Assembly: GCA_000146465.1 (NCBI GenBank)
Contig: CP001950.1
Reading direction: 5' to 3' (one strand)
DNA length: 64,000 nt
The notes under the pieces are model-generated. The model ran no database searches. It saw only the letters and a list, made by a program, of their open reading frames with translations, and was not told the origin of the DNA. A program made the position numbers and the translations under genes. Positions 9,014-62,909 of the stretch are shown here, in pieces. Position 1 is the first letter of the stretch. The number at the start of each line of letters is the position of its first letter.

Positions 9014-11482
9014 ATGAAAATTTCTAAATCCCGACAGATGCCAAAACTCCTAAAAAACTTTGGGTTTTCATCTCTTAGAAAGTTTTTAGCAGCCTACGAT
9101 ATTCCAGATCTTCCAAACATAGTAGATAGGGTGTATATCAAGGCAGATAGAAAGCCTTCAATTTCCTCGTTTGACTGCAAATTGAAGGAAATAGAACTTA
9201 TATCAAAGGCTATCAGAATGCTTTTGTCAAGAGACAAGGAAAACCATCTATGTGCGGGATACAAAAGGTGGAGTTCTGGGCCTCACGATTCAGACTTTAG
9301 AATTTTATGCTACTCACCCAGCGCCTCTTCAAAGATACTTAGGTCACACGAGTGGAGCCATTTGATGAAGTCGATTGGCGACGAGCTAGCTTTTTTCATC
9401 CTCACGGAATGTCTTGTGATTCAAATGTTAAATGGTAGTTATATCTTTCTAGCAGGAGACTTCAAAAGCCTCAGCAAGATGGCCATTGAAAGGGGGAGCA
9501 ACGCTATAAATAGGAGTGTAATCTTTTACAAACATAACCAGAAAATAAGCTTTTCTTCACTTTCCGCTTTTGAATATGTTTTTGAAGCTCACAATTCGGA
9601 AAAATATAAGACAATACAGAGAGACACCAGAGATATACTAGAGAGTATAGAAAAAAGATGGAAAAAGATTCCCATTCACTCTATGTTCAGGTCCTTTTTT
9701 AAGGACGAGTTGACTCTCGAGGGAAAGGGTAATATTTTGGAGTGTAGTGTCAAGCAGTCTAAGTTAGTGAACTTTTTGTTCCTCATTTCAAAGAAACTGC
9801 TTAAAGATGCCTTTGACTCCCATGCATTCAGAATACTGAAATCCAAGCTCTCTTTGTTGGTCCATAGGAACCGCTATGAAACAGTCAGCAAAAATGAGAT
9901 AGCAAAGTACTTTAGAATCTCTCGATTCAAGTTCTTCCGGGCCTATCGATGTAGAAGAAGTGAATTTATTTTCAGGTCCAAGATATCCTCAAGATTTCTT
10001 GTCTATGTGATGGAAAAGCTGATGATACCAATAATTTCAAGGCATTTCCATTCCACAGAAACTTCCTTTTCAAAGTTTAAGGTTCACTACTTCCCAAGAC
10101 CTATCTGGCAGCATTTTTCCGATATTTATATCGAAAGGTTCTTGAAAAGGTTTGAGCAGGTTGAAGAGAACAAGACATATCCTTATTCGGAGCTAAGATG
10201 CATTCCAAAGATGAGTGGAGCCAGGGTTATTTCGAATATGTCCAGAATTAGAAATGGGAGACCGTCGATCAACAGGAATATATATCCTGAATTCTGTGTT
10301 TTAAGAGAGGAGACTCGTGGAATGCTTGGAAATTCGATTCTAAACCATTCGGGAATGTACGAAAAACTTATTCCTTACTTGATAAAGTCCACAAAACCTT
10401 TGTATATCCTAAAGGTAGATCTTTCTGGTTGCTTTGATAACATTCCTCAGGATGAAGTTGTGAACCTAGTGAAGAGACTACTTAGTAAAAGCCGGTATTG
10501 CACAAGAAGCTTTTCTACACTAGGGGAGGCAAACGGGGAACTAAAGAACAGATACGTATGCAAAACAACTGATGTTACAGAAGCCATCGATAGATTGACT
10601 ATGGAGTCTAGTGTCTTTGGAAATAGAATAGTTAAGGAAAATTCGAACCAAAGGATTTTGAGCAGAGAAGAAATTGAGGGAACCATGATAAACATTATCA
10701 AAAGAAACTATGTAAGATACAAAGGAAAGTTCTTTATTCAGAAGACCGGGCTTGCCCAAGGGTGTGTGGCATCTACTCTTTTATGCAGCCTCTACTACAA
10801 GAGGATCGATGACCTTTATTTTGACAAGGTCTTCAAAGAAGGCATTCTTACAAGGTATGCCGACGACTTTCTTGTGGTATCTCCATCCTTAGACGAAATA
10901 ATGAAGTTTCTGGAAGTGTCTCAGTCCATCTCGCACCTGGGGGTTAATTTTAGTAAGGAGAAGATAGAATCAAACTTTGGTTTGGAAGAGTATTTTAAAA
11001 ATACATCCAACATCTCCGAACTCTCCGAACATAAGAACAAGATGAAAATAACCGACAAGCCCATAAAGTGGTGTGGAACAAAGATATATCCCAATAAGTT
11101 TTCAATTAAGTCGTGCACTATGGATCCATATCTTCCCTTTTCTACCGCTCATAGCTCGACTAGGCCTGGAAAGGCTTTGGAGTTGAGGATGAGAAAGTTG
11201 CTACGGAATCGAATGTCCAGAATTTACATAGACCCAAACAACAAAAAAGCATATGAAAACTTATATGATACGTTTCTGTTCTGTGGGAAGAAGGCGTGCC
11301 TTCTTCTCAAAAGGATGGATTTTATCAATTGTTCTTTTGCTCAAAGGATTCTTGAATGTTCAAAACATTTTGCCTTTAAGGTCTGTAGGAAGAATGGAAT
11401 CTCCATAACAAAGAAGAAGATAGAGGACATAGCCTCTAAGGCCTTCAAGAAGAGTGGCATTAGCAAAGTGATAAGTGCTTAG
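9014..11482 (+). CDS. TERT: Telomerase reverse transcriptase (TERT). A second in-frame ATG at 9038 is preceded by a CCC motif.
   Basis: RT motif 2 (SELRCIPKMSGARVISNMS), motif A (LYILKVDLSGCFDNIPQDEV), motif B' (FFIQKTGLAQGCVASTLLCSLYY) and motif C (LTRYADDFLVVSPS) are all present in canonical order. Confidence 0.85.
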   Translation: MKISKSRQMPKLLKNFGFSSLRKFLAAYDIPDLPNIVDRVYIKADRKPSISSFDCKLKEIELISKAIRMLLSRDKENHLCAGYKRWSSGPHDSDFRILCYSPSASSKILRSHEWSHLMKSIGDELAFFILTECLVIQMLNGSYIFLAGDFKSLSKMAIERGSNAINRSVIFYKHNQKISFSSLSAFEYVFEAHNSEKYKTIQRDTRDILESIEKRWKKIPIHSMFRSFFKDELTLEGKGNILECSVKQSKLVNFLFLISKKLLKDAFDSHAFRILKSKLSLLVHRNRYETVSKNEIAKYFRISRFKFFRAYRCRRSEFIFRSKISSRFLVYVMEKLMIPIISRHFHSTETSFSKFKVHYFPRPIWQHFSDIYIERFLKRFEQVEENKTYPYSELRCIPKMSGARVISNMSRIRNGRPSINRNIYPEFCVLREETRGMLGNSILNHSGMYEKLIPYLIKSTKPLYILKVDLSGCFDNIPQDEVVNLVKRLLSKSRYCTRSFSTLGEANGELKNRYVCKTTDVTEAIDRLTMESSVFGNRIVKENSNQRILSREEIEGTMINIIKRNYVRYKGKFFIQKTGLAQGCVASTLLCSLYYKRIDDLYFDKVFKEGILTRYADDFLVVSPSLDEIMKFLEVSQSISHLGVNFSKEKIESNFGLEEYFKNTSNISELSEHKNKMKITDKPIKWCGTKIYPNKFSIKSCTMDPYLPFSTAHSSTRPGKALELRMRKLLRNRMSRIYIDPNNKKAYENLYDTFLFCGKKACLLLKRMDFINCSFAQRILECSKHFAFKVCRKNGISITKKKIEDIASKAFKKSGISKVISA

Positions 11483-16695: not shown

Positions 16696-17448
16696 TTGAC
16701 CATCTGCTTGGAAGCAGAAGAAAGAGACCTGGGCAAAGAAGCAAGATTTCCCTGCAAAATTTTACCCAAGATGATTGCAGTAATAGACACAGGATATTTC
16801 ATAGAAAGGCAGATTCCTACAGACAAGGTGATTAGGGGATATGTTACAGATTCTGTTATAAATGAACTTAAGACTGCAGAGTCTGAAGAATATCTCAAGT
16901 TCTTCTCCTTCATGATAGAGGTAAGGAATCCTTCGGAAGAATATGTAGAGAAGGTTAGAAGAGATCTTAGAAAAGAGGTCAACAACTTGAGTAATACAGA
17001 TATCGAGGTTGTAGCACTAACACTGGAACTAAAAGATGAGGTCTCGGAAATGTGGGTTGGGCCGGAAAGCCAGAACCAAGAGGAAGTTGTTTGCTTTACA
17101 AATGACAACGGGATAAAGAATGCGTTATTGCGGTACACTATATACGAGAGCTCTATGTTTTCCTCTCGAAAGTATAAAGTCCGATGCTATGGATGTTTTA
17201 GCCTTTTTTCCGAGAATCTGGACTTCTGCAAAAAATGTGGACATCGAACACTGACAAGAATAGCCGTTGGAGACACGGAGAATGGGGAGGTTATGTTTTT
17301 TAAGAAAGGATACGAATACAGGAAGCCAAAGACACTTAAGAATGCAAAGGGAGTGGAACTCCGGAGTGCAGATCAGAGAGAGTATGTCCAGTATCAAAAA
17401 AATCTAAAGAGTAAAAGCAACAGGTCCCAGAGAGGACTAGATTTCTGA
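16696..17448 (+). CDS. NOB1: Nob1-like endonuclease (PIN domain plus C4 zinc ribbon). Probable start at ATG 16771.
   Basis: PIN start MIAVIDTGYFIERQ. Zinc ribbon CYGCFSLFSENLDFCKKCGH. Confidence 0.65.
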   Translation: MTICLEAEERDLGKEARFPCKILPKMIAVIDTGYFIERQIPTDKVIRGYVTDSVINELKTAESEEYLKFFSFMIEVRNPSEEYVEKVRRDLRKEVNNLSNTDIEVVALTLELKDEVSEMWVGPESQNQEEVVCFTNDNGIKNALLRYTIYESSMFSSRKYKVRCYGCFSLFSENLDFCKKCGHRTLTRIAVGDTENGEVMFFKKGYEYRKPKTLKNAKGVELRSADQREYVQYQKNLKSKSNRSQRGLDF

Positions 17449-17876: not shown

Positions 17877-18806
17877 ATGAAGGGGAAAGACTTGAAGGAA
17901 GAAATAAAAGAATCCTCTGGAGAAAATCGAGTTATGTTCGGAAATCCTACAAAGAGGCTTGCCTGTATTGGAATGAATTGGAGAAACATAAATGTCAAAG
18001 ATCTGTTTAAGATCTTCAACTCAATTCTACTGGGCTCATCTCCTCTGAGTGTGAAGCTCTGTAAAACCAAGATAGGAAGAGAACGTCTTGGAGACAACAA
18101 CATTTTTGTCAAGAGCTGTGAAGAGGGAAGGATCGATGAATGTTACACTGCTGTTGCCGAATTTGAGGATGTAGATGATTCAAAGCACATATATACTGCA
18201 TGCGACGGAGTAAGATTAGGGAACTCGGGAATGGTGTTTGATCTGAGATTTGTGCCGGACTCTCTTGATCTTCAAAACGTATGTGATGAGGCTTTCAACG
18301 ATGACGGATGTGAAGAAAAGGACTTTGTTGTCAGAGAGAAGAAAGAGGAGGAAGATGATAGTGAGATAGAGTCTCGGCTTGAGAAATTATTCAAAGAAAA
18401 GGAAATCAACTTCGACCTTGTCTCCGAGCTGGTCGACATGTCTGATGATGAGAACATTTCCGGCCTGCAAGACCATCTGCCAATTTCTTCGGAGAACGAG
18501 AAGAGCAAGTTCCTAGAGTCCAGCTCCGACGATTTTAACGACGAAATATCGGAGGATAAGGAGATCGAAAATAAGAAAGCCAAGAAGAAAGAGTCTAGTA
18601 AGAAAGACATAGAAACCATTCCCAGAGGAAAGCCAATAGACGAGTGTGATGGCTTTATGTTTGATCCAAAAGACAAAAGATTCGAGGCAATATTTGAAGA
18701 CGAAGACTTTGCCATTGACCCCACACACCCCGAGTATAAGAGAAAGGGCGGTTTGAAGGAGATATTAGATGAAAAGAGAAAAAGAATTAAGGATAACATT
18801 GATTAA
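17877..18806 (+). CDS. Acidic protein with an RRM-like N-terminal domain; possible nucleolar factor
   Basis: RRM-like core (RLACIGMNWRNINVKDLFKIFNSI...CYTAVAEFEDVDD), followed by long D/E/K/S-rich low-complexity sequence. Confidence 0.35.
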   Translation: MKGKDLKEEIKESSGENRVMFGNPTKRLACIGMNWRNINVKDLFKIFNSILLGSSPLSVKLCKTKIGRERLGDNNIFVKSCEEGRIDECYTAVAEFEDVDDSKHIYTACDGVRLGNSGMVFDLRFVPDSLDLQNVCDEAFNDDGCEEKDFVVREKKEEEDDSEIESRLEKLFKEKEINFDLVSELVDMSDDENISGLQDHLPISSENEKSKFLESSSDDFNDEISEDKEIENKKAKKKESSKKDIETIPRGKPIDECDGFMFDPKDKRFEAIFEDEDFAIDPTHPEYKRKGGLKEILDEKRKRIKDNID

Positions 18807-18860
18807 AGTTTCTTTGGATTAACACACAACCGGTTTGAGATTTACAATAGTGCAAGTAAA

Positions 18861-19050
18861 CCGTTTATTCTTAATAGATTTTCAACTTCTTTGATCTCCA
18901 GTGTCTTCTTGCCTTGTTGTACTCCCCCTTGTGCTCCTTCATCATTCTCTTCCATGCAGGAATCTCTCTGTTCCTCTTCAAGGCTCTCATGAGCCTTGTC
19001 TTCACCAAAGCAGTCTTTCTTGATCCCTAGAAATTAACCCGAGTCAAATC
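18861..19050 (-). CDS. RPL39: 60S ribosomal protein eL39, with a 31-nt intron. Exon 1 is the ATG at 19048-19050. The intron is 19017-19047. Exon 2 is 18861-19016.
   Basis: Exon 2 encodes [51 protein letters not shown]. This aligns with eL39 ([50 protein letters not shown]). An in-frame TAG precedes GGATCA, and the ATG lies 31 nt upstream. It is followed by GTAAGG and the intron ends TTAATTTCTAG. Confidence 0.8.
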
Positions 19051-19127
19051 GCCTTACCATTTCGTCGGGGCTCAAATTTTTCTCAAAATAACCTTACCGA
19101 GGAGCTTCCAAGATGAGGAGCCAAAGG

Positions 19128-20258
19128 CTATTTTTTCATCTGCTCTCTCTTTTTGCTATTTTCCCGCATTGCATTGTAAAATGTGCAGAGTTTCTCGATT
19201 GTTAGGCTGTCCTTGAGGCTTTCCAATATACTGCAAACAACTCTTATGTTGTTGGGTGTGTCTTTATCTTCTCTGATCCTATACAATTTCCACCCACCCT
19301 TCCTCAGTACAAACTCATCAAGATCCCAGTAATATCCGTCGTTGTCGTACAGAAACTCTCCTATTTTTCCATCTACTTCCTCGTCTTCACAAAAAAAATG
19401 GCCAAACACAACATCCTTTCCTCTCTTTCCACTGCACACCAGATCGTATACATGGCCAAACTCCTTGGCCTTTGTAATCTTAAAATCTATTGTGTTCAGA
19501 AACGTAGGCTTCCACTTGAGAATTACACCTCTTTTCCCTACCGAGTAAGGCTCATCTGTAGGAGTGAATATTAAGCCGTCATTTCCATGCTTCAGGTCCG
19601 GGATCTTCTTGTACACCTCCCAGAAACCATAGCTCTTCATCATCTGTTTAACATAGAAATGTATACTGATACATCCAGGCTCCTGGCCCTCAGCCCCAAT
19701 TGGAATTCTCTTCGGCTCAAACCCATCCTCGTCCTCTTTTTTTAAGGCTTTGGTCTTTTCGACACTTCCCTTCATTCTATCCACAAACATTTGTGCGTAT
19801 CCAAGCCTTTTATACAAGTTCTTAAGTATCTGGGGAGCGTCTTCATATATCAAGCAATCAAATATGGCGTAAGTGGTGACTGTGCCATCTTCCAGAAAGA
19901 TCTCTCCATCTATCAAGACAGTCGAGGAAAAGGGAAAGTTCATGTCCAATTCGTAGAAGTCGTTTTTTCTATCGTAAAAGTATCCTTTGGATATGCCCAT
20001 CTTTTCTGTAACAAGCAGCAAAGCTCTGATTCCGTCGGACTTCTCGCACACAAGGAAGTCCTTGCTCAACAAAAGATCAATGTTGTCCAGTGTTAGAGAC
20101 ACTGGATGGCATCCTGGAAACCTTTCTCTTTTCTTGGCCCCTGCTATGCAAAGCTTCTGGTATATGCCTATTCTGAGGGCCTCTGCCTCCTCGGACGGAA
20201 CTTTGTTCCCTAGATGTAAGAGCTCCATGACCGATTCAGGACTCCGACAAAACTGCAT
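19128..20258 (-). CDS. CEG1: mRNA capping enzyme, guanylyltransferase subunit (Ceg1-like). The track ORF 'starts' at a GTG at 20276; the first ATG is at 20256-20258.
   Basis: KxDG motif I (LVCEKSDGIRALLL) at the expected distance from the N-terminus, with nucleotidyltransferase and OB-domain order. Confidence 0.75.
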   Translation of the reverse strand: MQFCRSPESVMELLHLGNKVPSEEAEALRIGIYQKLCIAGAKKRERFPGCHPVSLTLDNIDLLLSKDFLVCEKSDGIRALLLVTEKMGISKGYFYDRKNDFYELDMNFPFSSTVLIDGEIFLEDGTVTTYAIFDCLIYEDAPQILKNLYKRLGYAQMFVDRMKGSVEKTKALKKEDEDGFEPKRIPIGAEGQEPGCISIHFYVKQMMKSYGFWEVYKKIPDLKHGNDGLIFTPTDEPYSVGKRGVILKWKPTFLNTIDFKITKAKEFGHVYDLVCSGKRGKDVVFGHFFCEDEEVDGKIGEFLYDNDGYYWDLDEFVLRKGGWKLYRIREDKDTPNNIRVVCSILESLKDSLTIEKLCTFYNAMRENSKKREQMKK

Positions 20259-20285
20259 TTTCCATAGCCCATCCACAATGAAAAA

Positions 20286-20403
20286 GATTACAGCACCCGG
20301 GATTCCCGAGTGGTCTCCCGCCTCAGTACTATCCGGGCTCGCACAGGCTTAACTGCGGAGATCTGACGAGTTCCGGTGCTTTTCTGTGGATATGGCCGTA
20401 ATC
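20286..20403 (-). rRNA. 5S ribosomal RNA (118 nt), with a T5 terminator at 20281-20285
   Basis: The minus-strand sequence GATTACGGCCATATCCACAGAAAAGCACCGGAACTCGTCAGATCTCCGCAGTTAAGCC...GATAGTACTGAGGCGGGAGACCACTCGGGAATCCCGGGTGCTGTAATC matches eukaryotic 5S nearly block for block (UACGGCCAUACC...GUCUGAUCUCGGAAGCUAAGC...UAGUACU...GGGAGACCGCCUGGGAAUACCGGGUGCUGUAGGC). Helix I is a 9-bp closing stem (GAUUACGGC/GCUGUAAUC). A TTTTT run follows. Confidence 0.9.
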
Positions 20404-29297: not shown

Positions 29298-30824
29298 TTA
29301 TTCTCTTGTTCTTTCTCTGGGCTTGCACTTGACAATTGCATCGCACTTGATTATCATTTGTGCAGCCTCCGATGCAGCAGTAACAACACGATGCTTGATT
29401 CTAAAGCTGTCCACAACCCCAGACTCCTTCATACAACCAACACTTCCGCTACGGACATTTACTCCATAGCTTGTCTTACCAGAGTTGTGCTCGGCCCTCA
29501 GACTTGCCCTTATGCCTTCTCCATCATATCCTCCGTTGTCCGCGAGTATCTTTGGAATTTGCTGCAAAGCATTTGAAAATGCTAAAATGGCTTCACTTTC
29601 AATCCCAGGAACCTCCATGGCATAAGTGTTTAGGTCGACTGCCATTGCCATCTCACTGGACCCTCCTCCATAGACAACACGCGGATCCTGCTTTATCTTC
29701 GACAGAACACATAGTGCATCATGAACACTTCTTTCTGCCTCGTCCAGCATCTCTTTCGATGATCCACACAGGACAATGGTGCTTGCTCCACTCTTCACCC
29801 CGCTAAACTTTATTGCTCTTTCGTTTCCAATGTAAACATTCTTGACATTCTTGCAGGTCCCATAGCATGTTTCATCCATGCTGTCGAACGTACTCAGTAT
29901 CTTTCCTCCAAGCACATTGGAGAGTCTTTCAACCCCATCAAAGTCTGCATGTTCAATGGCTTGGATTCCCTTTATCTTCAGGAGCTGGAGAGGATAATCG
30001 TATATAAGCTGTCTATTAATAAACATATTTATCCCGTTCTGGGAAATCCGCTCCACCTTTTCTTGAATCTTTCCCTTCTCCACCTTCTCCATCTCCTCAA
30101 GCTCCCCCACAGAGCTGACATTGATCTTAGCCCCAAATATCTTAATTTTGTCTTGATCCATGCTGGTGTTGGCTATCAGGATCTTTGGATCGTTCACCTC
30201 CTCTATTCGGACGTCTTTCTTTAGAAGAAACCCATCGTCGAGATATGAGTCCTCGAGCTTCCCAGAACACTTGATCACCTGTACAAGATTCAAGTCGTTC
30301 CTACCCCCAAGGTTCTCAATAGCATTGACACAGATGTTGCAGAACTTCTCCAGATCATACTTCAGAACCTTCGAGCACAGTGTTGTCCTGGCAAGCTTGA
30401 CCAGATCCTCTTTCGATGGGTTGAAGCTAATTCTCTTCAGCACTTCAGAACACCTAGCCTGTGCCATTCTATATCCCTTAAGGATCTTCGTTGGATGCAT
30501 CTCCAGCTTGCTGGCCTCCTTGACAAGTAGACTTGCCAAAATTGCAACAGAAGTCGTCCCATCTCCTTCCTCCCAGTCCTGTCCAGTGCTGGAGTTGATC
30601 AATATCCTTGCAGACGGGCTGTCGATCATCAGGTTCTTGAGAATAAATGCCCCGTCGTTGGTAACATGGACGCTTTGTCCCTTCAGCATCTTAAGCATCC
30701 CCTTTGGTCCAAGGGTTGTCTTCAGTATGTCTCCCACAATATCCGTCCCTGCAAGAATCGTTCTCTTTGCATCATCGCCTTTTTCCTCGGTGGTTCCCAG
30801 ATTTGCATGGCTGAAGATGTTCAT
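29298..30824 (-). CDS. T-complex protein 1 (CCT/TRiC) subunit, beta-like. The track ORF runs to 30950; the probable start is ATG 30824.
   Basis: Group II chaperonin signatures TTLGPKGMLKML, VTNDGAFILK, and GDGTTSVAILASLL. Confidence 0.8.
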   Translation of the reverse strand: MNIFSHANLGTTEEKGDDAKRTILAGTDIVGDILKTTLGPKGMLKMLKGQSVHVTNDGAFILKNLMIDSPSARILINSSTGQDWEEGDGTTSVAILASLLVKEASKLEMHPTKILKGYRMAQARCSEVLKRISFNPSKEDLVKLARTTLCSKVLKYDLEKFCNICVNAIENLGGRNDLNLVQVIKCSGKLEDSYLDDGFLLKKDVRIEEVNDPKILIANTSMDQDKIKIFGAKINVSSVGELEEMEKVEKGKIQEKVERISQNGINMFINRQLIYDYPLQLLKIKGIQAIEHADFDGVERLSNVLGGKILSTFDSMDETCYGTCKNVKNVYIGNERAIKFSGVKSGASTIVLCGSSKEMLDEAERSVHDALCVLSKIKQDPRVVYGGGSSEMAMAVDLNTYAMEVPGIESEAILAFSNALQQIPKILADNGGYDGEGIRASLRAEHNSGKTSYGVNVRSGSVGCMKESGVVDSFRIKHRVVTAASEAAQMIIKCDAIVKCKPRERTRE

Positions 30825-30857
30825 CTGGGGTGAAAATTTTGTTCTTCTTGTAAACCC

Positions 30858-54508: not shown

Positions 54509-55381
54509 CTATCTCCGGAAATGTATATAGAACTCATGGATACTCCCGGCAACCTCCTCTAATATCGGCAGGTCAAAGGGAAAAAAGTATAGGCAGTCGT
54601 GGTCGTGGCTGGAAAACTCTTTGCATTCGTAATCAAACAGCTCACAAAACATCTCAACCACATTCTTGTTCATATATCTCGCCATTCCAGAACTGAAGAT
54701 CCGTTCTATGATGTCCTTTGCATCTGCTACAGACTCTCTTCTGAAGCAAGAGATATACAAAAGACATTGATGAGCTGCAACCGATTGGATCGAAAGAGAC
54801 TTTCCATACGATCGGACATAGGCCTGATAGTCTTGGACATACATTGCCTTAAGACCCTCGTCCACTTTGCACCTCACAATTAAAGATGATAGATAGGGAA
54901 GAAACGCAATTGGATTTTTGCGGACTAGTTCGAGCAGAAACCCAAAGACTGCTTGTGGATTTCGATGGCATAGCTTGAAGAGGAGGAACTGGATGTTCCG
55001 TGTCCTTGAGAGCATCGAAGTCTCAAAGGCCTTGAACACCTCGTCGATCTTGAAGTCGTATATAGCATTGTCTAGATTCTCATATGCAAATAGAAACAGC
55101 TTGATCTTCTCTCTGAGCTTTGCATGGCCTCCCTCTATAGGTGTGTCGTAGTCGGAAACCACCTCGTCCCATTCATCCTGCGTCAGTATCCCATGCATCA
55201 CACTGATGTAGGCATCAAGATTCGTAAGTTCCCGTACAAGACTCTGAATGGTAGGTCTCATCAATGTTCTATCATGTGCGTAGAGTACCATTCTGTCTGC
55301 AACAGACAGATCAATAGGCGCCTTCCTCAAGCTCTCCAGGAATTCCAATCTTTCTTTATAAGTTAACGCCATGGGGATCAA
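54509..55381 (-). CDS. Hypothetical helical protein
   Basis: 290-codon ORF. No motif. Confidence 0.35.
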   Translation of the reverse strand: MIPMALTYKERLEFLESLRKAPIDLSVADRMVLYAHDRTLMRPTIQSLVRELTNLDAYISVMHGILTQDEWDEVVSDYDTPIEGGHAKLREKIKLFLFAYENLDNAIYDFKIDEVFKAFETSMLSRTRNIQFLLFKLCHRNPQAVFGFLLELVRKNPIAFLPYLSSLIVRCKVDEGLKAMYVQDYQAYVRSYGKSLSIQSVAAHQCLLYISCFRRESVADAKDIIERIFSSGMARYMNKNVVEMFCELFDYECKEFSSHDHDCLYFFPFDLPILEEVAGSIHEFYIHFRR

Positions 55382-55440
55382 TTTTTTTACAGTTTAATGC
55401 AAAAGTTCGAATCTACAAGACTAAAGATATTTATTTGGTA

Positions 55441-61703: not shown

Positions 61704-61988
61704 ATGGACATACTGGATGCTGAGGAAAGTGATGTTGATTTAATCGAGCTTCAAGGAGAGGTTGAGAATATGGAGGCCTTTGATGGGAGGCTCAACAAGG
61801 AGCTTGTTCAGCTTGAGTTTGGAACATGTGTTCTTCACGGAAGAAAGATTGACAAAGAGTTTAATATCATTGAGACAGACGTCTGCAACGGAAGGCCTTG
61901 TTTAAAAGTCATAAAGAAGGTTAAATGTGTATATTTATTTGATAAGCCTCCTAGGTATAGAAGCTCAGGCCTAGGGCGTGGAAACTAA
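61704..61988 (+). CDS. Small hypothetical protein (94 aa). Its 3' end overlaps the UBA3 stop by 4 bp on the opposite strand.
   Basis: Acidic N-terminus, then a small beta-rich domain. No motif. Confidence 0.3.
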   Translation: MDILDAEESDVDLIELQGEVENMEAFDGRLNKELVQLEFGTCVLHGRKIDKEFNIIETDVCNGRPCLKVIKKVKCVYLFDKPPRYRSSGLGRGN

Positions 61989-62837
61989 GCATCCGTGTTG
62001 CACACAATGCATTTTTCGTCTCTGTCTAAAATCAGCTTTTCCAAAGTAATATTCTTCTCCCCGCTGTAGAATATGAAGTCGTAGTGCAGGTTTGTTGCAT
62101 CTATCAACCCGCATGCCAAGCTTGCACACACAGAGTTAATAAAACACACATTCGGAATTATCTCGTCAAACATCCCAACAACATCAAATGCATTTACTTT
62201 CAGATTCTCCTCTGCAAGAGCATTGAATTCATTGATTATTTTCTTGATCTTTTCCTCCCTACTTCCCGGCTCCTCTCTCCTGAGCTCTACCAAGGACCGG
62301 AGTGTTTTCTCTCTGTTTTCCGGTGTTATCTTCTTTGGCAGAGATCCCAAAGAACATATCTCAGGGCCGTCTTCTCTGTATAACTCCCTGATACAATATA
62401 AACATGAAGAGCCTCTGTAGACTGCCTTTGCATGTGCCCTGTATCCACTTATTCCACAGTCGATAAGAAGTTTACACTCAGATTTTCGGAACATCAGGTT
62501 CAGGTTCATTCTTCCTTCGATGTTGTCAAGAGCCCCAAAGATCACGTCGTACTGATTCAAAACATTGATAGGAACCTCCTCTATCCTTCGTACTAGGAAG
62601 CTTGCTCTACCTCCATACTGCTTGTTTATAAACTCGGCTGCCTTCTCTGACTTGTATTTCCCTTGATCCTCCTTTGTAAACATGAAAAGCCTGTGGAGAT
62701 TTGTCAGATGAATTCGGTCATGGTCAACCACAAGTATCTTGCTCGCCCTTCCACCCAAAAGCTTCAGTAGCTCCATTCCAGTTCCTCCACATCCTGAAAT
62801 TAGTTACTCGCCACTTACCAACTAGAACTATCCTCAT
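61985..62837 (-). CDS. UBA3: NEDD8-activating enzyme E1 catalytic subunit (UBA3-like), with a 25-nt intron. Exon 1 is 62819-62837 (ATGAGGATAGTTCTAGTTG). The intron is 62794-62818. Exon 2 is 61985-62793.
   Basis: The spliced N-terminus MRIVLVGCGGTGMELLKLLGGRASKILVVDHDRIHLTNLHRLFMF...KSEKAAEFIN aligns with UBA3 (KVLVIGAGGLGCELLKNL...[20 protein letters not shown]...KAEVAAEFLN). The Rossmann GxGGxG is only completed by exon 1. The catalytic Cys context is SSCLYCIRELY. The intron is GTAAGTGGCGAGTAACTAATTTCAG. Confidence 0.75.
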
Positions 62838-62909
62838 AAAGGGCATAGGCAAAAGACATTTCACATTCAAGACATACTCATTTTTATTTGAGACTCTCAT
62901 GTCAATGTG

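Follow-up and report, generated by a model that had tools for sequence, protein, structure and literature searches.

A split eL39 gene in Encephalitozoon intestinalis, with a start codon set apart from the remainder of its coding sequence by a 31-nt intron

In Encephalitozoon intestinalis, whose nuclear genome is to our knowledge the smallest known, a short gap between two larger reading frames almost certainly holds the single-copy gene for ribosomal protein eL39, with its start codon separated from the following codons by a 31-nt intron. The window analyzed here is a stretch of 64,000 nucleotides (GenBank assembly GCA_000146465.1, contig CP001950.1). The gene lies on its minus strand at 19060..18871, and the landmarks listed in Table 1 were read from the reverse complement of positions 18600..19400 and located by script. 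The interval 18807..19127, bounded by a convergent 309-aa ORF and an upstream 382-aa ORF, was confirmed to be free of ORFs of 60 aa or more, and the longest ORF in the frame of exon 2 has 45 aa and begins with TTG. An Rfam scan found no RNA family overlapping the locus.

The gene had been proposed by a model that saw only the DNA letters and a list of ORFs (the sequence-only reading), and each of its statements about the sequence itself holds true. An ATG followed directly by GTAAGG is found at 19060..19052 on the minus strand, the spacing to exon 2 is 31 nt, the intervening sequence ends in TTAATTTCTAG, and a TAG directly before exon 2, the one that holds the AG of the 3′ splice site, closes the exon-2 frame. 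When the ATG is joined to position 19026, the proposed 52-residue peptide is reproduced letter for letter, and without splicing the frame of the ATG ends after 8 codons (MVRRFDSG and a stop). The coordinates that came with these statements were wrong, being in every case exactly 10 too low: exon 2 had been placed at 18861-19016, the ATG at about 19050..19048 and the junction between 19016 and 19048, and the true positions are those of Table 1, with a predicted splice junction between 19058 and 19026.

Table 1. Positions of the eL39 gene, its presumed expression signals and other features noted in the window
Feature	Position	Strand	Basis or remark
Second GTAAGG, rejected as splice site	19097..19092	minus	32 nt upstream of the ATG
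Conserved upstream block GGTTATTTTGAGAAAAATTTGAGCCCC, 27 nt	19093..19067	minus	presumed core promoter and transcription-start signal
AAATTT-like signal in upstream block	19079..19074	minus	matches published motif
CCC-like signal in upstream block	19070..19067	minus	matches published motif
ATG, sole coding part of eL39 exon 1	19060..19058	minus	sequence; annotated gene start in CP075166.1 and JBLUPL010000019.1
eL39 intron, 31 nt, GTAAGGCGATTTGACTCGGGTTAATTTCTAG	19057..19027	minus	GT-AG, phase 0, after codon 1
eL39 intron 5′ splice site GTAAGG	19057..19052	minus	sequence
eL39 intron branch-site-like motif TTAATTT	19037..19031	minus	putative branch A at 19034
eL39 intron 3′ end CTAG	19030..19027	minus	sequence
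eL39 exon 2, codons 2-52 and TAA stop	19026..18871	minus	PF00832 match, identity to ADM12169.1
eL39 stop codon TAA	18873..18871	minus	closes exon 2
AATAAA, candidate polyadenylation signal	18869..18864	minus	1 nt past stop (TAA-G-AATAAA)
mRNA capping-enzyme ORF, 382 aa	19128-20276	minus	GTG start 9 nt from 5S rRNA gene
5S rRNA gene	20285-20403	minus	RF00001, 97.6 bits, full length
AAATTT...CCC...ATG copy	9017-9040	plus	before a non-ribosomal-protein start
AAATTT...CCC...ATG copy	16756-16773	plus	before a non-ribosomal-protein start
AAATTT...CCC...ATG copy	30822-30840	minus	before a non-ribosomal-protein start
AAATTT...CCC...ATG copy	55373-55387	minus	before a non-ribosomal-protein start
Exon 1 of second probable split gene	62819-62845	minus	
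Second probable spliceosomal intron, 25 nt, GTAAGTGGCGAGTAACTAATTTCAG	62794-62818	minus	
ORF into which exon 2 of that gene runs	61985-62776	minus	Pfam ThiF

The spliced 52-aa peptide matched the Pfam family PF00832 (Ribosomal_L39) with 59.8 bits (E = 1.9e-16) against a gathering cutoff of 21.6 bits, and the match extended over positions 1-42 of the 42 in the profile. A phmmer search of the PDB sequences returned 39 eL39 chains with E-values up to 1e-5. The best of these was chain O9 of the E. cuniculi ribosome (7QEP), a protein of 52 aa that is identical at 51 of 52 positions and aligns from 1-52 to 1-52 (E = 1.3e-29), followed by the eL39 chains of the Vairimorpha (6RM3, 1-52 to 1-52) and Paranosema (6ZU5) ribosomes. 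In these two microsporidian chains the alignment starts at residue 1 or 2, and the animal, plant and fungal chains align 1-49 to 1-49 with the spliced peptide. The claim of homology to eL39 along the whole length is thus borne out by full-length alignments to chains of solved ribosomes.

An exact-sequence look-up showed the spliced peptide to be ADM12169.1, the 60S ribosomal protein L39 of E. intestinalis ATCC 50506 (52/52), a sequence that is also deposited as UTX45971.1, KAL7345093.1 and KAL7349001.1. The cluster of ADM12169.1 includes the 52-aa L39 of E. cuniculi, E. hellem and E. romaleae, and in a protein search the 52-aa entries of E. hellem and Ordospora colligata were 94% and 81% identical, respectively. 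All 6190 of 6190 nt around the gene are identical to the E. intestinalis sequences CP075166.1 and JBLUPL010000019.1. In both, the annotated gene spans 190 nt and its 52-aa product is not a colinear translation of this span; such an annotation therefore describes a split gene with a 31-nt intron. A first exon that consists of the ATG only, as had been suggested, is the structure annotated in these two assemblies, and four related species have the same structure. GenBank records of E. intestinalis and of four relatives thus already contain the gene together with its protein and intron, and the novelty implied by the sequence-only reading does not stand, as the gene escapes a simple ORF track only and is present in existing annotation.

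In order to compare the locus across E. intestinalis, E. cuniculi, E. romaleae, E. hellem and O. colligata, we found the corresponding loci by exact-protein look-up. The gene order is common to all five species (SNF2 helicase, capping enzyme, L39, ESF1-like, NOB1). Subtracting the common 159-nt coding sequence from gene spans of 189-191 nt gave an intron of 31 nt in E. intestinalis, 32 nt in both E. cuniculi and E. romaleae, and 30 nt in both E. hellem and O. colligata. In all five the intron stands directly 3′ of the ATG, its length is not restricted to multiples of three, and an unspliced read reaches an in-frame stop codon inside it. The 5′ ends are GTAAGG or GTAGGT, and the 3′ ends consist of TAAYTT followed by 0-2 bases and AG. 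The ends carrying the branch motif read TTAATTTCTAG in E. intestinalis and CTAACTTCTAG, CTAATTTTTAG, CTAACTTTAG and GTAATTTTAG in the orthologues, so that the branch-site-like motif of E. intestinalis, TTAAT, departs slightly from the genus consensus, the other species having CTAAC, CTAAT or GTAAT; it is the only copy of the five with T in place of both C's of the consensus. By analogy with UACUAAC, A19034 is the putative branch nucleotide. A single occurrence of the signature ATGGTARG-N(12-30)-TAAYTT-N(0-3)-AG was found in the window, where 0.02 would be expected, a count that is illustrative only, since the site and its orthologues were already known when the pattern was drawn up.

Intron identity between species was 62-84%, compared with 81-98% for codon positions 1 and 2 of exon 2. 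Position 3 of the same codons was 46-81% identical over the ten species pairs, an asymmetry typical of purifying selection.

Some gene calls near L39 in this comparison deserve mention. In E. romaleae (CP003526.1) the SNF2-type helicase is divided over two adjoining ORFs, of 390+ aa and 298 aa, instead of the 687-703 aa found elsewhere, and the capping enzyme has 288 aa versus 364-376 aa in the other species; the stretches concerned are 1-1575 and 2063-2929 of the extracted CP003526.1 piece, and the short calls suggest frameshifts, sequencing errors or start-codon mis-calls. In E. intestinalis the capping-enzyme ORF is probably over-extended, because its GTG start lies only 9 nt from the 5S rRNA gene, and its start differs between the two assemblies (366 aa vs. 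376 aa). That 5S rRNA gene, situated between the SNF2-type helicase and capping-enzyme genes, is the only Rfam match in the window.

The eL39 ATG is kept in all five species, 6-7 nt past CCCC. The upstream block is shared without any change by E. intestinalis, E. romaleae and E. hellem, differs by 1 base in E. cuniculi, and takes the form AAAAAAATT...CCCC in Ordospora. AAATTT and CCC signals have been reported to precede all E. cuniculi ribosomal-protein genes, together with 5′ UTRs of only a few nucleotides (Peyretaillade et al., PMC2803860), and we presume from its sequence that the block is the promoter signal of the eL39 gene. From the placement of the AAATTT and CCC signals, the ATG at 19060 would mark the very 5′ end of the transcript, with a first exon of a handful of bases and a 5′ UTR that probably measures no more than a few bases. 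On the 3′ side, GAATAAA stands immediately after the L39 stop codon in all five species. AAUAAA is reported as the microsporidian 3′-end signal (PMC2803860), and the copy at eL39 would be expected to serve in 3′-end formation. A second GTAAGG was considered as a splice site and rejected: it reads CAAGG, GAAGG or GAAGA in the other species, and a site that is both unconserved and upstream of the promoter-like signal is unlikely to be used in splicing.

The pattern AAAATTT-N(1-8)-CCC-N(1-10)-ATG was found 4 times in the window, versus 0.47 expected. Copies of AAATTT...CCC...ATG also stand before starts of genes that do not encode ribosomal proteins (Table 1), among them a NOB1-like PIN-domain gene and a putative chaperonin-like gene, the latter so called from the look of its N-terminal sequence. 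Such copies fit the published idea that AAATTT...CCC marks highly expressed genes.

The best-surviving alternative is an eL39 gene that does without splicing, and we consider it very unlikely. Translation would then start inside exon 2, either at the TTG at 19008, giving 45 aa, or at the first ATG in frame, giving 39 aa (MRALKRN...), and the arrangement of ATG, GTAAGG and TAG upstream would be incidental. The 45-aa ORF is indeed present in the ORF finder list, and its product scores 60.4 bits in Pfam, which is as good as the spliced product; since both cover profile positions 1-42, Pfam is unable to separate the 52-aa from the 45-aa product. Furthermore, L39 products of 39 aa have been called automatically on two Logan assemblies, and short Encephalitozoon introns are reportedly spliced inefficiently. 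The comparison between species, however, argues against both internal starts. The TTG reads TTA in E. cuniculi and O. colligata, and it therefore cannot be a conserved start codon. The first seven codons of exon 2, leading up to this position, encode GSRKTAL in all five species, and each of the ten pairs shows 0 non-synonymous differences and at most 4 synonymous ones (AGA/AGG, AAG/AAA, ACT/ACA, TTG/TTA). The Vairimorpha and Paranosema ribosomes likewise have eL39 chains with the GSRKT N-terminus, and other eukaryotic chains align from residue 1, while the 39-aa product lacks profile positions 1-5. The ATG, the signals at the intron ends and the upstream promoter signal are kept in the five species even though the length of the intron varies by 1-2 nt, and the annotated introns of E. 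cuniculi have been confirmed by published RNA-seq (PMC3629993).

It is still harder to regard the locus as a decaying, unexpressed pseudogene with the functional copy elsewhere in the genome. The gene is small, split and confined to a short intergenic gap, and a second copy could lie outside the 64-kb window. Against this, the reading frame is intact, the codon positions of exon 2 point to strong purifying selection, the promoter and poly(A) signals are conserved, L39 is syntenic in all five species, the protein search gave one L39 sequence per species, and a near-identical E. cuniculi L39 is listed in the ribosome structure 7QEP. Together these make a pseudogene extremely improbable. Finally, although short basic peptides are prone to spurious similarity, the idea that a Lys/Arg-rich ORF resembles eL39 by chance has a negligible probability and is refuted by the PF00832 match across the entire profile, by the phmmer matches to 7QEP and 38 further eL39 chains, and by the identity of the spliced peptide to a deposited L39 protein.

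The eL39 gene with an intron after its start codon is therefore the reading that we retain, and the literature bears on whether this intron is removed. The 2001 annotation of E. cuniculi already contained the L39 intron. L39 is listed with the ribosomal-protein genes of this species that have introns, and O. bayeri has a homologous intron (Corradi et al., 2009, PMC2784321). In T. hominis L39, a related motif was found at the position of the E. cuniculi and N. ceranae intron (Heinz et al., 2012, PMC3486916). RNA-seq then confirmed splicing for every E. cuniculi intron annotated up to that time (Grisdale et al., 2013, PMC3629993), and as the annotated set includes L39 (PMC2784321), it follows from the two papers together that the E. 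cuniculi L39 intron is spliced. Its removal in E. intestinalis is presumed here by analogy with this orthologue. The same study found that most short E. cuniculi introns are spliced in <50% of transcripts, many in <20%, and that spliced transcripts are the minority for 30 of 37 introns (PMC3629993); its main text does not name L39, and we found no splicing level for the individual L39 intron there. ECU09_0395, a highly expressed gene (FPKM about 650-1140), was considered as a possible E. cuniculi L39, an identity that we do not assert. When the spliced junction GAAATGGGATCAAGRAARAC was sought in metagenome contigs, as cDNA or an intron-less copy, the search returned 8 chance matches, 0 of which continue as eL39.

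Among known systems, ADM12169.1 is the same gene over the same 190-nt span and shows no difference. E. cuniculi RPL39 (CAD27011.1 / NP_001402292.1; 7QEP O9) has the same neighboring genes, an intron directly after the ATG with a GTAAGG 5′ end and a TAAYTTCTAG-type 3′ end, and the upstream AAATTTGAGCCCC signal. It differs in having an intron of 32 nt instead of 31 nt, the branch-site-like CTAAC where E. intestinalis has TTAAT, and the one protein difference K39R. The introns of yeast ribosomal-protein genes are hundreds of bases long, efficiently spliced and served by a much fuller spliceosome, unlike the short introns of microsporidia. What the two share is the 5′-biased position, as there are ribosomal-protein genes in S. 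cerevisiae whose introns lie at the start codon or beside it (PMC2784321).

Microsporidian ribosomal-protein genes (L19, L27a, L37, L37a, L39, S26 and others) are known for short, 5′-biased introns of 22-76 nt, which are GT-AG, lie in or next to the start codon and when retained lead to a stop codon or a frameshift (PMC3629993, PMC6349667, PMC2784321). The eL39 intron is a typical member of this class. It has GT-AG ends, a GTAAG-type 5′ site and a branch-like motif, its 31 nt fall within the published 22-76 nt range (PMC3629993), and in all five species its retention breaks the frame and its removal restores full-length eL39. When the sequence-only reading called the arrangement characteristic of microsporidian ribosomal-protein introns, it was in agreement with published descriptions, in one of which L39 is listed by name (PMC2784321).

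A second probable spliceosomal intron, of 25 nt, was noticed elsewhere in the window, at 62794-62818. In contrast to the L39 intron, it is located 19 nt into its coding sequence. Its removal would join MRIVLVG to CGGTGMELLKLL... and thereby restore the GxGxxG nucleotide-binding motif of a ThiF/E1-type enzyme. With the spliced N-terminus, the Pfam ThiF score of the ORF at 61985-62776 rises from 66.5 bits, with a match that starts at profile position 45, to 84.7 bits, with a match that starts at 22.

The eL39 locus adds little in the way of discovery, as papers on microsporidia have dealt with the L39 intron since 2001-2012. Its use lies in what it shows about method: a split gene of fewer than 60 aa with a first exon of one codon can be recovered from raw sequence, although a reading made from sequence only can misplace coordinates by one full ruler block of 10 nt. 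Both ORF-only tracks and automatic callers get the gene wrong. The automatic calls on the Logan assemblies mentioned above (proteins P0007 and P0008, of the same cluster) take the first ATG of exon 2 as the start of a 39-aa L39, which indicates that gene callers unaware of introns mis-annotate eL39.

With regard to expression of the gene, we propose that the AAATTT...CCC signal would direct transcription to start a few bases upstream of the ATG, and that the pre-mRNA would present the AUG followed at once by a 31-nt GT-AG spliceosomal intron (GUAAGG...UUAAUUUCUAG). Splicing would join the AUG to GGA UCA AGA... and so make the 52-codon frame, and the AAUAAA right after the stop codon would direct 3′-end formation. 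The product would be the small basic protein eL39, a predicted constituent of the 60S subunit. As unspliced transcripts would yield only an 8-residue peptide, eL39 output would depend fully on splicing, by a spliceosome that is known for its inefficiency in this genus. With the altered branch-site-like motif TTAAT in view, retention of this intron could be read as a true throttle on how much eL39 is supplied, species-specific or regulated, beyond mere inefficiency, but this is doubtful. With an exon 1 that consists of the AUG alone, every unspliced eL39 transcript would be non-productive, and given that the splicing of short E. cuniculi introns is mostly below 50%, most eL39 transcripts may be non-productive.
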